The position numbers and the translations under genes are program-made. From sequence record SRR31156797_14741: DNA of 64,000 nt. One strand, 5' to 3'. The notes under the pieces are model-generated. The model was not told where the DNA came from. It ran no database searches and saw nothing but the letters and a program-made list of their open reading frames with translations. The first letter of the stretch is position 1. Every line of letters begins with the position of its first letter. Shown here in pieces: positions 10,461 through 56,609 of this stretch.

Positions 10461-10476
10461 TGCTCCACGTGAAACA
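10461..10476. promoter_or_regulatory. parS (ParB/Spo0J binding site)
   Basis: TGCTCCACGTGAAACA, one mismatch to TGTTNCACGTGAAACA; intergenic. Confidence 0.7.
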
Positions 10477-25426: not shown

Positions 25427-25611
25427 TCGTGCCTCATAAGCATGAGAACAACAGCCAATGGTCGGTCTTTAACCGCTCATTGGTTGTTTTTTTCTGAGGA
25501 GTTTCAGGATGTTTTTAGAAAAAACGATCGCAGTCATGTTTCTTTTCACCAATTTATGGTATTCTTGAAAGTGACTTGCGAAACGCAAGCACAAAATAAA
25601 ATAGAATCTAA

Positions 25612-25698
25612 TCACAAAGGGGAGTCTGCAAAGGCTGAGAATGAGAGTACTCTAAACCCTTCGTACCTGTTTCGATCATGCGAACGTAGGAATTGTGA
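25612..25698 (+). ncRNA. TPP riboswitch (thi-box)
   Basis: P1 TCACAA/TTGTGA, GGGGAG..GCTGAGA, ACCC, ACCTG..ATGC..CGTAGGAA; an anti-SD CTCCTTT pairs with AAAGGAG; upstream of thiT. Confidence 0.85.
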
Positions 25699-25761
25699 CG
25701 AGTTGAAGTGTCTAACACTTCTCCTTTGTGAATTGTGATGATTCTAAAGGAGGAGTTTTTT

Positions 25762-43859: not shown

Positions 43860-44780
43860 ATGGTTGAGATTATCGCCACGGTGGAATCGATCGAGCAAGC
43901 ACAGCAGCTGATCCCTTATGTTGATACATTGTTTTTTGGAGAAGAGACATTTGGGCTGCGCCTACCGGCCTCTTTTTCTCGTGAAGAGCAAATCAGACTG
44001 ATCGACATGGCCCACGAAGCTGGAAAGAAAGTGACGATCGCGGTCAATGGCATCATGCACCCAGAAAAAATGAAGCTGATTCCAGAATACCTAGCATTTC
44101 TGAAGACCAATCAAGCCGATCAAATCGCTCTCGGAGATCCTGGGATCATTTACCGCATGAAGCAAAATCCAGAATGTGCCTTGCCATTTATCTATGCAGG
44201 GGAAACCTTAGTAACAAGCGCTCGTCAAATCAATTTTTGGGGACAAAAAGGGGCAAGGGCAGCCGTTTTAGCGCGAGAAGTTCCTTTCGAGGAAATGAAA
44301 ATCATGGCCCCGCAACTAAATATTCCTGTGGAAGTATTGGTTTATGGTGCGACCTGCATTCACCAATCGAAGCGTCCGCTTTTACAAAATTATTATAACT
44401 ATACCCAACAATCGGAAGAAAAGAACCATGACCGGGGGTTGTTTTTATCCGAACCGAAAAAAGAAGAAACCCACTATTCCATTTATGAAGATAGCCACGG
44501 TACGCACATTTTTGCCAATAACGACATTAATTTGCTGCTGCAGCTGGCGGAATTAGCCGAAACAGGCTTTCAAACCTGGAAGTTGGACGGAATCTATACA
44601 CGAGGGGCAGCCTTTGTGGCAATTGCTAAACTGTTTGCCCAAGCCAAGAGCCTTGTGGAAAGTGGGGAGTGGCAAGCAGAGCAAGCTGCTGTGCTCAGTG
44701 AACATGTTGCCCAACTTCATCCGGCAGAACGTGGGTTAGACACTGGATTTTATGCCATCGATCCTGACGATATCAAGTAA
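43860..44780 (+). CDS. Peptidase U32 family, tRNA hydroxylation subunit 1 (TrhP1/YrrN-like)
   Basis: VLARE, VYGATCIHQSKRPL, WKLDG motifs; paired with a second U32 gene. Confidence 0.85.
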   Translation: MVEIIATVESIEQAQQLIPYVDTLFFGEETFGLRLPASFSREEQIRLIDMAHEAGKKVTIAVNGIMHPEKMKLIPEYLAFLKTNQADQIALGDPGIIYRMKQNPECALPFIYAGETLVTSARQINFWGQKGARAAVLAREVPFEEMKIMAPQLNIPVEVLVYGATCIHQSKRPLLQNYYNYTQQSEEKNHDRGLFLSEPKKEETHYSIYEDSHGTHIFANNDINLLLQLAELAETGFQTWKLDGIYTRGAAFVAIAKLFAQAKSLVESGEWQAEQAAVLSEHVAQLHPAERGLDTGFYAIDPDDIK

Positions 44781-44793
44781 GGAGCAAGAACAA

Positions 44794-46035
44794 ATGACCG
44801 TTAAACAAGCATTGAAACGACCAGAAGTGTTAGCACCAGCTGGTACGTTAGAAAAATTAAAAACAGCGATCCACTATGGCGCTGACGCTGTCTATATCGG
44901 CGGCAATGCCTATGGCCTACGGAGTCGCGCGGGAAACTTTACCTATGAAGAAATGGCGGAAGGGGTAGCTTTTGCCAAAGCCCACAACGCAAAAGTCTAT
45001 GTAGCAGCCAACATGGTGACTCATGAGGGCAATCAAGAAGGTGCAGGGGAGTTCTTTCGGGAATTGCGAGATGTCGGTATTTCGGCCGTGATTGTTTCTG
45101 ATCCCGCTTTGATCCAGATCTGCGCAACAGAAGCGCCGGGTCTACCGATCCATTTGTCCACCCAAGCCAGTGCCACGAACTATGAAACGTTGGAATTTTG
45201 GCGAGAAGAAGGCCTAGAACGGGTCGTCCTCGCTCGGGAAGTGTCGATGGAGGAAGTCGCTGAGATCCGCAAAAATACCAGCGTGGAGATCGAAGCCTTT
45301 ATTCATGGCGCCATGTGTATTTCGTATTCTGGCCGTTGTACTTTGTCCAATCATATGTCGATGCGAGACGCTAATCGCGGCGGCTGTTCGCAATCTTGCC
45401 GTTGGAAATATGATCTGTTTGACATGCCGTTTGCAACGGAACGAAACAGTTTGACCAAGAATGGGACAGTGGAAGAAGAATTCTCCATGAGTGCCGTGGA
45501 TATGTCGATGATCGAACATATCCCTGATCTGATTGAAAACGGCGTGGATAGTTTCAAAATCGAAGGCCGCATGAAATCGATCCACTATGTTTCAACCGTG
45601 GCGAACGTTTATAAAGCAGCCGTGGACAGTTACATGGCCGATCCAGAGAACTATGTCTGCAAACAAGAATGGATCGATGAACTGTGGAAAGTTGCGCAGC
45701 GCGAGCTTGCGTCAGGCTTTTACTATGATACCCCGAGTGAAAATGAGCAGTTGTTTGGTCCACGTCGGAAAATTCCACAATACAAGTTTATTGGGGAAGT
45801 CATGGCATATGATCCGGCAACGAAAACAGCTACGATCCGGCAACGGAACCACTTTTCCGTCGGCGATGAAATCGAATTTTACGGTCCCGGATTCCATCAC
45901 TTTCACCAAACCGTCGAAGTCATGTATAATGAAGACGGTGAATCCATCGATCGTGCACCAAATCCTATGATGCTGCTGACGATGCCGGTCAAAGAACCGG
46001 TGGAAGTCGGAGACATGATTCGGAAGAAAAAATAA
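44794..46035 (+). CDS. Peptidase U32 family, tRNA hydroxylation subunit 2 (TrhP2/YrrO-like)
   Basis: PEVLAPAG, HGAMCISYSGRC, NRGGCSQSCR, KIEGRMKS Fe-S motifs. Confidence 0.9.
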   Translation: MTVKQALKRPEVLAPAGTLEKLKTAIHYGADAVYIGGNAYGLRSRAGNFTYEEMAEGVAFAKAHNAKVYVAANMVTHEGNQEGAGEFFRELRDVGISAVIVSDPALIQICATEAPGLPIHLSTQASATNYETLEFWREEGLERVVLAREVSMEEVAEIRKNTSVEIEAFIHGAMCISYSGRCTLSNHMSMRDANRGGCSQSCRWKYDLFDMPFATERNSLTKNGTVEEEFSMSAVDMSMIEHIPDLIENGVDSFKIEGRMKSIHYVSTVANVYKAAVDSYMADPENYVCKQEWIDELWKVAQRELASGFYYDTPSENEQLFGPRRKIPQYKFIGEVMAYDPATKTATIRQRNHFSVGDEIEFYGPGFHHFHQTVEVMYNEDGESIDRAPNPMMLLTMPVKEPVEVGDMIRKKK

Positions 46036-46128
46036 GGTCGAGAGTTTCTCTCGGCTTTTTTTGTTGAATCAATCCAGCCAAAAAGGATCGATGAGAACAT
46101 AGACAATCTTAAGGAGGAAACAACAAAT

Positions 46129-47475
46129 ATGGAAACATACGACTACATAGTAATTGGCGGCGGCAGCGGCGGGATCGCCTCAGCCAATCGAGCAGGAATG
46201 CACGACGCCAAAGTATTATTGATCGAAGGCAATGAATTAGGCGGCACCTGTGTCAATGTCGGCTGTGTGCCGAAAAAAGTCATGTGGCAAGCCAGTGAGA
46301 TGTTAGAAATGATCAAGCGGGACGCAACTAGCTACGGCATTTATCCACATGTGGATAAATTTAATTTTACTGAGCTTGTGGATAACCGTGAAAAATACAT
46401 TGATTTTTTACACACAGCCTATCAAAAAGGCTTAGATAGCAATAATGTAGAAGTTATCCACGGTTATGCACAGTTTGTGGATAACCACACGGTTACCGTC
46501 AATGGGGAAAACTACCATGCAGCAAACATTTTGATTGCCACCGGTGGAAAACCTAGCGCGATGAATATTCCCGGCGGTGAGTACGCCATTGACTCGAATG
46601 GTTTTTTTGCGTTGCGAGAAGCACCAAAGCGTATGGTCGTCTTAGGGGCAGGCTACATCGCAGCCGAAATCAGCGGGGTCAGCCAACAGCTGGGCAGCCA
46701 AGTGGCTTGGGCGTACCGCAAAGAGCGGCCATTACGAACCTTTGACAAGATGCTTGCGGATAATCTTGTGGAGATGTACCAAGAATCAGGGATCGAAACC
46801 TATGCAGGCTACGTTGCCTCTCGTATCATTAAAGAAGGTGACGAGTATATCGTTCACTTTGAAAATGGTGAAACCTTGACCGGCGATTGCGTCCTTTTTG
46901 CTGGTGGTCGCGTGCCGAATACGGATAAGTTAGGCCTAGAAAACACCGATGTCCAATTGGATGAAAAAGGGTTTATCATTGTGGACAAATATCAAAATAC
47001 CACAGCTGACTCGATTTTTGCAGTGGGCGATGTCATTGGAAAATTAGATTTAACCCCGGTTGCGATCGCCGCCGGTCGTCGCTTGTCTGAACGCTTGTTC
47101 AACGGTCAAAGCGATGCGTACTTGGATTATCACCTAGTGCCGACGGTCATCTTTACGCATCCACCGATTGCCACGATTGGTTTATCCGAAGAAGCAGCCT
47201 TGGCAAAATACGGCCAAGAGCAGATAAAGGTGTATCGTTCGCGCTTTACACCGATGTACTTTGCTTTAAATGAGTATCGCCAAAAATGTGAGATGAAATT
47301 GGTGTGCTTAGGAGAAGAAGAAAAAATCATCGGTCTGCACGGCATCGGGATCGGTGTCGATGAAATGCTGCAAGGCTTCGCTGTAGCCATCAAAATGGGT
47401 GCTACAAAAGCAGACTTTGATCAAACCGTTGCCATTCATCCGACGGGGTCAGAAGAATTTGTGACGATGCGTTAA
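46129..47475 (+). CDS. gor: Glutathione reductase
   Basis: [32 protein letters not shown] motifs. Confidence 0.96.
46339..46484. promoter_or_regulatory. Intragenic DnaA-box cluster
   Basis: Perfect TTATCCACA at 46341 (+) and at 46350, 46377, 46476 (-); TTATGCACA at 46464; near matches at 46408 and 46454. Confidence 0.75.
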
Positions 47476-47476
47476 A

Positions 47477-47525
47477 AGAAAAAAAGCCTCAACGGACAGA
47501 TGATTTGTCCGTTGAGGCTTTTTTT
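47477..47525. terminator. Bidirectional terminator between gor and dmkB
   Basis: AAAAAAAGCCTCAACGGACA...TGTCCGTTGAGGCTTTTTTT. Confidence 0.9.
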
Positions 47526-56593: not shown

Positions 56594-56609
56594 TGTTTCA
56601 CGTGTAACG
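56594..56609. promoter_or_regulatory. parS (ParB/Spo0J binding site)
   Basis: TGTTTCACGTGTAACG; reverse complement CGTTACACGTGAAACA has one mismatch to consensus. Confidence 0.75.

Follow-up and report, generated by a model that had tools for sequence, protein, structure and literature searches.

The DNA analysed here is a stretch of 64,000 nucleotides from sequence record SRR31156797_14741, referred to below as the window, and the element in question is a cluster of DnaA boxes located inside the reading frame of gor, the gene for glutathione-disulfide reductase. In five enterococcal genera, the boxes of this cluster are conserved beyond what the encoded protein accounts for. The gene and the box features are as follows.

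46129..47475, plus strand: gor, glutathione-disulfide reductase gene (448 amino acids), an open reading frame that carries the cluster
46339..46360, both strands: perfect 22-nucleotide palindrome formed by the abutting boxes 46341-46349 (+) and 46350-46358 (-), encoding I-Y-P-H-V-D-K
46377..46385, minus strand: perfect box, encoded by (L)CTT-GTG-GAT-AA(C), that is, L-V-D-N
46454..46462, plus strand: one-mismatch box TTATCCACG, in tandem with box 46464 and 1 bp ahead of it
46464..46484: core module, a head-to-head inverted pair of 21 nucleotides composed of TTATGCACA (+, 46464-46472), a 3-bp spacer, and TGTGGATAA (-, 46476-46484)
46755..46763, minus strand: one-mismatch box TTATCCGCA, at the fringe of the cluster
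46980..46988, minus strand: one-mismatch box TTGTCCACA, at the fringe of the cluster

The gor frame is intact, as a first-pass annotation made from the letters of the sequence had stated, and its product combines the Pfam domains Pyr_redox_2 (1.5e-65) and Pyr_redox_dim (4.6e-35) with a redox-active segment, the combination by which membership among Gor proteins was judged. The protein bears out the enterococcal assignment of that annotation: its identity to Gor is 99% for E. casseliflavus NBRC 100478, E. entomosocium, and E. innesii and 86-88% for E. gallinarum, Enterococcus sp. DIV0876, and Ca. E. testudinis. Across gor, the window and its nearest genome (G001) share 98% identity, and orthologues were found in 114 of the 121 family genomes searched. 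At the cluster sites the protein reads YPHVDK, LVDN, and an 11-letter stretch, and the opposite strand over the cluster contains no open reading frame of at least 60 amino acids.

Four perfect TTATCCACA boxes lie at 46341 (+), 46350 (-), 46377 (-), and 46476 (-), a TTATGCACA box lies at 46464 (+), and the 64-kb window holds no other perfect box. These positions agree with the first-pass annotation, as do the palindrome (11-nucleotide arms, gapless, 100% complementary) and the further one-mismatch boxes at 46755 (-) and 46980 (-). The two near matches that it listed fared differently: TTATCCACG at 46454 (+) departs from the consensus at one position, whereas TTACACACA at 46408 is present but carries two mismatches and is not conserved. 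All five matches of the window to the relaxed consensus TTATNCACA fall within 46341-46484, that is, 144 bp of gor, and the 146-bp stretch around them holds five to six boxes with at most one mismatch. Relative to the reading frame, the boxes extend from +212 to +356, with the fringe boxes beyond. The frame x-V-D-(N/K) is common to the three minus-strand boxes, and those on the plus strand encode Y-P-H and Y-A-Q, the latter within G-Y-A-Q-F-V-D-N of the core module. A perfect plus-strand box in that frame requires Y-P-(H/Q), and the conserved TTATGCACA encodes Y-A-Q; thus, the sole departure from the strict consensus can be read as an Ala codon replacing the required Pro.

The cluster is rare by every count made. 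Dinucleotide shuffles of the window contain a mean of 0.44 perfect boxes, in keeping with the earlier estimate of under one per 64 kb, and none of 100 shuffles reaches the four observed. One-mismatch boxes are only mildly enriched over the whole window (22 vs 13.8 expected; 2/100 shuffles reach 22); the signal is a local cluster and not a property of the window at large. The complete genome G007 (3,116,607 bp) has 37 perfect boxes, 15 of them at three loci, namely the two halves of oriC (3+3), a sua5-prmC cluster at 2,798,991-2,799,402 (five), and gor (four). A genome-wide scan, which the first-pass annotation had proposed as a check, places gor among only three loci with at least three perfect boxes in four genomes of the genus g1 (G007, G008, G001 with 54 boxes, and G002 with 42 boxes), the others being oriC and the sua5-prmC spacer; in G001 and G002 the third cluster was identified solely by like box spacing, and of the two only G001 has a located dnaA.

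Conservation was assessed on a codon alignment of 71 gor genes, comprising the window, 30 loci, and 40 genes from the 114 family genomes with a match. The genus g1 (casseliflavus/gallinarum), a group set by taxonomy, is represented by the window and eight species, nine sequences in all. All eight species retain three to four perfect boxes at identical codons; 9/9 sequences have a perfect box 46341 and 8/9 a perfect box 46350, all nucleotides of 46339-46355 are invariant, and both boxes are partly retained in the genera g5, g4, g6, and g12. Every usable codon in the perfect boxes (12/12) is synonymously invariant in g1, against 68/365 elsewhere in gor, a contrast matched by none of 100,000 permutations. 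Among the 15-codon windows of gor with the lowest diversity, two start at codons 70-71 and the next three at codons 103-105, spanning the second box group. The footprint of nucleotide invariance matches the box positions. By contrast, the same codons vary normally in the control genus g16 (18 sequences, boxless gor; diversity 0.375 vs 0.431 in the remaining codons). A segment between the box groups, 46420-46437 (TATCAAAAAGGCTTAGAT), is likewise near-invariant within g1, synonymous sites included, but not across the five genera.

The module was sought in 134 family genomes with the inverted-pair pattern TTATNCACANNNTGTGGATAA, for which a reversed control pattern gave no matches. The arrangement TTATGCACA-NNN-TGTGGATAA lies inside gor in 28/28 genomes of g1, g4, g5, g6, and g12 and in 0/106 other family genomes, and it is exact in all 28 even though Gor identity to the window falls to about 68-72%. 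The spacer serves as an internal control: it reads GTT in 13 genomes, ATT in 13, GCT in one, and TTT in one, its varying first base being the third position of a Gln codon and hence a synonymous site, whereas the 18 box positions are fixed and the six synonymous sites within the flanking boxes never vary. Codon choice follows the same division. Leu83 is encoded by the rare codon CTT in 20/20 sequences from the box-bearing genera and in 6/51 from other genera, and Gly112 GGT, Ala114 GCA, and Val117 GTG are fixed in 20/20 where other genera vary, a comparison that is descriptive only because the groups were defined by the presence of boxes. The box-permitting residues (YPH, VDN/VDK) are specific to the box-bearing genera. 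With regard to the check suggested in the first-pass annotation, on whether boxes are kept at synonymous sites or drive amino-acid changes, synonymous sites within boxes stay fixed as gor diverges elsewhere, and residues have changed as well.

A reading without function would derive the boxes from the amino-acid sequence of Gor, codon bias, and shared ancestry. The single frame used by the three minus-strand boxes is in its favour, as are the frequency of F-V-D in Gor of many genera and the mean of 0.39 boxes per gene that this protein predicts, far over the genome background. Resampling of the codons of this Gor with the codon usage of the window, however, yields four boxes in just 2/20,000 trials, and the frozen synonymous sites, the fixed rare codons, and the exact module in every carrier genome run counter to it; recent transfer of one gor allele is opposed by the high synonymous divergence outside the boxes. 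This reading therefore retains a nearly negligible probability, and a chance origin of the cluster is excluded for practical purposes. The pattern of conservation indicates that the cluster is neither chance nor a by-product of the protein and that it is kept by selection, and the boxes are very probably selected sites to which DnaA would bind.

Across the box-bearing genera, each gor carries two to five perfect boxes (20/20 sequences), whereas in ten other genera of the family a perfect box occurs in 2/51 gor sequences, one each, and in six other families of the order it occurs in 0/50 gor genes, sampled from 115 non-family genomes with a match. The core boxes across genera are 46377 (-), 46464 (+), and 46476 (-). 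Box 46377 is perfect in 17/20 sequences, with one mismatch in two more, and both boxes of the core module are present in 20/20, while the palindrome is found mainly in g1 and g5. Box 46454 occurs in 6/9 g1 and 1/2 g12 sequences only, its synonymous sites vary, and it is probably a young or dispensable member of the cluster. At the fringe, box 46755 is present in 4/9 g1 sequences only, and box 46980 is perfect in G001, 2/3 g4, and 1/2 g12 sequences. In g4, g5, g6, and g12, additional boxes are found at the sites corresponding to 46497, 46920, and 46980. Such turnover within a lasting cluster fits selection on box number and not on one exact site. The cluster is carried by, among other named species, E. 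casseliflavus, E. gallinarum, E. italicus, and Ca. E. willemsii; it is absent from gor in E. avium, E. raffinosus, E. dispar, and Tetragenococcus muriaticus. In a quick Gor tree with codons 69-120 masked, 20/20 carriers fall within one group of 31 rows (SH-aLRT 94) that also includes 11 non-carriers from g14 and g15. The carrier label needs four changes on this tree, of which well-supported branches force just one, and a single gain followed by losses is possible.

The conserved nucleotides might instead serve a structure of the gor mRNA or another palindrome-binding protein. The RNA of 46330-46495 is predicted to fold at -47.1 kcal/mol, against -30.1 for shuffled sequences (z = -4.5; 0/200 shuffles as good), and both conserved units are palindromic. 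However, a 9-mer repeated in inverted orientation must produce such a fold; conservation of the single box 46377 equals that of the pairs; and no compensatory changes are seen, the arms being invariant while the spacer drifts. The 9-mers are the exact DnaA consensus, as at oriC and at the intergenic clusters, which also counts against this alternative. It is accordingly highly improbable.

The position of the cluster has been traced through relatives. In G007, the record begins with dnaA and the gor boxes lie at 3,035,834-3,035,977, 80.7 kb from the origin, and gor points in the direction of fork movement. In G008 (if the scaffold closes on itself), gor is ~78 kb from dnaA; the figures for G012, G040, and G041 are ~95, 114, and 75 kb, and two g16 genomes with a boxless gor have 33 kb. 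The cluster is thus origin-proximal in the box-bearing relatives, as the first-pass annotation had supposed, and presumably so in the window's own genome, judging from these relatives. GC skew of the window is positive in 29 of 32 2-kb bins. The same annotation held that the cluster is not itself an origin, and this stands: tblastn finds no dnaA in the window, no run of at least three TAG/TAA trios occurs on either strand of 46200-46700, and no 40-bp stretch of 46000-47000 exceeds 75% A+T. Because the window lacks dnaA and neither an AT-rich stretch nor a trio run accompanies the boxes, the cluster is not oriC; in the relatives, the true oriC flanks dnaA. The overall proposal of that annotation, a non-origin DnaA-box cluster near the origin and concealed within gor, is supported.

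Two further observations concern parS. Sites one mismatch from TGTTNCACGTGAAACA lie at 10461-10476 and 56594-56609, both apparently intergenic, and matches with at most three mismatches number nine in the window, against 2.7 expected (0/100 shuffles reach nine), which fits an origin-proximal region. The gor palindrome was considered as a parS site and rejected, since it is not among the matches even at three mismatches.

Sister clusters offer the closest comparison. The family-wide search returned 73 distinct module sites: 28 in gor, 25 upstream of rlmH (placed by coordinates, with the SPOUT_MTase Pfam domain for three), 13 in the sua5-prmC spacer (four confirmed by Pfam and nine assigned from the layout of reading frames or identical sequence), and seven unplaced. 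In G007, the inverted pair with a 3-bp gap occurs in both non-origin clusters and is absent from oriC. The prmC-sua5 cluster (L093 3990-4415, equivalent to G007:C1:2798991-2799415; also L127-L133 and L137) contains five to six perfect boxes and two such pairs, with one box within sua5 and one pair overlapping the final prmC codons, and it looks like the enterococcal counterpart of the Bacillus subtilis DnaA-box cluster (DBC) DBC[ywlC-ywlB]. The cluster upstream of rlmH (yydA) lies beside a gene for an HtrA-like protease (L135, L136, L138, and L142-L144, from G107, G112, G020, G041, G109, and G040). It occurs in many genera, and 20/21 g8 genomes with a module match have the module there; in G007 and G008 no such cluster occurs, and that of G001 (L141) is weak. 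Even within one genus, genomes differ in their set of clusters.

Two of the six B. subtilis DBCs are at homologues of these genes, sua5 being ywlC and rlmH being yydA; DnaA binds both in vivo and represses both genes, and joint deletion of the six leads to early initiation (PMC3245932; PMC4447404). The effect of a DBC depends on its closeness to oriC (Okumura et al., 2012; PMC3245932). TTATNCACA is the relaxed consensus of B. subtilis, where 300 bp of a DBC region contain 4-12 sites (Smith and Grossman, 2015; PMC4447404). The gor cluster resembles these in having several consensus boxes within 150-300 bp, outside but near oriC, and in its lineage-specific siting, as different Bacillus species also use different genes (Okumura et al.; PMC3245932). 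Furthermore, since the enterococcal homologues of two DBCs, at sua5 and rlmH, bear the inverted pair of the gor type, the gor cluster shares a building block with clusters that have experimentally established homologues. The main departure is that all six B. subtilis DBCs are intergenic, several of them on promoters, whereas the gor cluster is wholly intragenic and costs codons and residues; binding and an effect on initiation have been demonstrated for the former and are proposed for the latter. The gor cluster is a DnaA-box cluster by content and position, yet fully intragenic, dual-coded, and lineage-specific.

Intragenic boxes have precedents. In B. subtilis, codV, rplB, and other genes contain boxes bound in vitro, although these regions have two to five sites with a 5- to 100-fold weaker apparent Kd and binding was undetected in vivo (PMC4447404); gor differs in that its 146 bp hold five to six sites with at most one mismatch and clearly bear the mark of selection. 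The E. coli dnaN region is likewise intragenic, although that report does not address whether it is conserved as a dual code (PMC11317965). E. coli sites bound in vivo are paired 2-3 bp apart, as in the gor pair, whereas single consensus boxes are often unbound (13/32 bound); those listed for E. coli are tandem double boxes, in contrast to the inverted pairs of enterococci (Stringer, Fitzgerald and Wade, 2024; PMC11317965).

Among the E. coli control sites, datA is, like the gor cluster, a box cluster outside oriC; it lowers initiation potential, and its dose rises once it has been replicated. Firmicutes are not known to possess IHF. The action of datA is an IHF-dependent hydrolysis of DnaA-bound adenosine triphosphate (PMC13036160), and datA is not coding, unlike the gor cluster. 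The DnaA-reactivating sequences (DARS) DARS1 and DARS2 have head-to-head boxes as their key unit, as gor does (Sugiyama et al., 2019; PMC6868365), and this likeness permits a different replication role, namely a DARS-like site whose head-to-head dimers change the nucleotide state of DnaA, or an anchor that loops to oriC or recruits DnaD, DnaB, or YabA. The conserved gor units are inverted, whereas tandem pairs are preferred for plain binding in E. coli (PMC11317965), the oppositely oriented boxes I and II form the essential core of E. coli DARS for release of adenosine diphosphate (PMC6868365), and the inverted pair distinguishes both non-origin clusters of G007 from oriC. However, DARS, which reactivates DnaA, needs boxes I and II 5 bp apart with a third box in tandem (PMC6868365), whereas the gaps in gor are 3 bp and 0 bp and no fixed third box is so arranged; moreover, the same inverted pair is found at rlmH and sua5, and the corresponding B. 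subtilis DBCs act negatively on initiation (PMC3245932). Such a role is very unlikely for the gor cluster. Its need is also small on general grounds, for DnaA of B. subtilis exchanges nucleotide rapidly unaided and would therefore require little help from DARS.

What the analysis establishes is that the boxes exist and are rare, that coding constraint does not account for their conservation, that DBC homologues share the architecture, and that gor lies near the origin in relatives. Since the cluster appears to be kept in gor by selection, it probably helps to control the timing of chromosome copying. The interpretation that we favour, with a probability of roughly 0.6, is that this stretch of gor would be a lineage-specific, intragenic, dual-coded DBC that acts as an origin-proximal sink for DnaA. 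Two inverted pairs and a single box would give DnaA four or five high-affinity binding sites, and a stable complex would form ~80 kb from oriC, keeping DnaA from oriC as the non-origin DBCs of B. subtilis do. Replication would double this sink within a minute or two of initiation, and early re-initiation would thereby be damped. The cluster may have arisen in an ancestor of the five genera (the casseliflavus/gallinarum, italicus, and willemsii groups and two more) through codon choice and amino-acid changes at permissive positions of Gor, and purifying selection on the DNA itself would have maintained it thereafter.

Several points weigh against a DnaA sink. The literature consulted yielded no chromatin immunoprecipitation or binding data for enterococcal DnaA, and the distance to the origin is taken from relatives and not from the window's own genome. 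In B. subtilis, the eight regions bound in vivo are all intergenic, and even the strongest intragenic in vitro sites, codV and rplB, are undetectably bound in vivo, where the authors suspect eviction of DnaA by transcription (PMC4447404). Deletion of single B. subtilis DBCs leaves the ori/ter ratio without measurable change (PMC3245932), and the force that freezes ~18 positions in gor is therefore not obviously explained by titration alone. The idea that the gor cluster compensates for a lost rlmH cluster was not borne out: upstream of rlmH, G007 and G008 are boxless and G001 carries a weak cluster, yet in G040 and G041 the gor and rlmH clusters coexist. Finally, most enterococcal genera are without the gor cluster, and the stretch folds well as RNA, as described above.

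The principal alternative to a sink is that the boxes were selected for control of gor, which bears on how the gene is transcribed. Two features flank it.

46034-46058: terminator-like hairpin, upstream of gor
47479-47525: inverted repeat with 23-nucleotide arms, directly 3′ of the gor stop codon

Because a terminator-like hairpin precedes gor and an inverted repeat follows just past its stop codon, the gene is probably transcribed alone, as a monocistronic unit, and the whole cluster lies within its transcribed body. DnaA bound at +212 to +356 might block or slow RNA polymerase and tie redox or thiol supply to the replication cycle; full-length gor mRNA would then fall at high free DnaA, and strong gor transcription would strip DnaA from the boxes. 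E. coli RNA polymerase can reportedly be halted by DnaA that occupies a box within a transcribed sequence (Schaefer and Messer, late 1980s). The gor boxes face both ways, and any orientation rule for a block would therefore be satisfied; two perfect boxes lie just 5′ of gor in Ca. E. huntleyi (L109), which belongs to another genus; and DnaA regulons elsewhere contain genes for nucleotide supply (PMC11317965). However, the known repression by DnaA in B. subtilis works at promoters (PMC4447404), whereas the 500 bp upstream of gor are boxless in 7/8 g1 species, the eighth (L006) having two one-mismatch boxes, and contain a perfect box in 0/30 loci checked. Furthermore, a need specific to gor should recur, and no convergent gain of boxes was seen in the 50 genes of six other families or in the ten other genera of this family. 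The boxes upstream of gor in L109, located at 1264-1344 in a spacer ~160-240 bp from the gene, are not shared by the congener G025 (L045), and gor of L109 itself retains only one-mismatch remnants at the positions of 46350 and 46377. Nothing was found to favour a link with gor expression over a simple sink for DnaA, and control of gor is considered unlikely.

A reservoir gated by transcription would combine the two roles. Under weak gor transcription, DnaA would occupy the boxes and be withheld from oriC, an arrangement that seems quite doubtful; induction of gor, for example by oxidative or thiol stress, would sweep DnaA off while DnaA in turn throttles gor, and this part is just as doubtful. 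If true, redox state and initiation timing would be wired together through doubly coded DNA. No DBC, datA, or DARS is known to work in this manner.

A search of open-access papers and bioRxiv, with subscription journals outside its scope, found no description of the gor cluster; among the papers listed, judged by title and abstract, none treated non-origin clusters of enterococci, and nothing relevant was listed on DnaA boxes as an overlapping code in coding regions. Non-origin DBCs are an accepted layer of initiation control, although very few organisms have been examined for them, and those established in B. subtilis are intergenic. A cluster inside the reading frame of an enzyme, held across five genera at the price of fixed rare codons and altered residues, offers a clean natural example of overlapping protein and DNA-binding codes in bacteria and illustrates that DnaA-box clusters are gained, lost, and moved among lineages. 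The inverted pair with a 3-bp gap emerges as a recurring unit of enterococcal non-origin clusters. In addition, synonymous changes can abolish the boxes without altering protein or promoter, which separates the role of the site from that of the neighbouring gene, a separation impossible with intergenic clusters.

Assembled RNA data cover the locus; four of the 22 public runs found were compared with it. Contigs of runs X3 and X4 span gor, whereas metatranscriptome unitigs of runs X1 and X2, which belong to one study, end at 46447-46487 in the conserved core, where a 41-nucleotide unitig is deeper. These breaks are a technical effect, as expected if enterococcal strains share just the invariant piece, and they are no functional evidence; the runs consist of assembled contigs, which are uninformative on transcript ends, level, and strand, and the libraries may contain DNA.

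Some minor observations concern the surroundings of gor. Immediately upstream lie two neighbouring peptidase U32 genes (306 and 427 amino acids, 43860-46035). In the genus g16, G100:C5:256849-261364 contains two equal-scoring gor copies 3.2 kb apart, which suggests a tandem duplication. In draft genomes of other genera (e.g., G115:C58, G044:C44, G083:C69, and G104:C4), gor often begins 5.6-7 kb from a contig end, a spacing that suggests a repeat at a fixed distance upstream, probably an rRNA operon. Elsewhere in the window, eight consecutive tRNA genes occupy positions 1-700, as seen after rRNA operons, and a thiamine pyrophosphate riboswitch lies at 25608-25709 (62.7 bits; gathering score 54.3).

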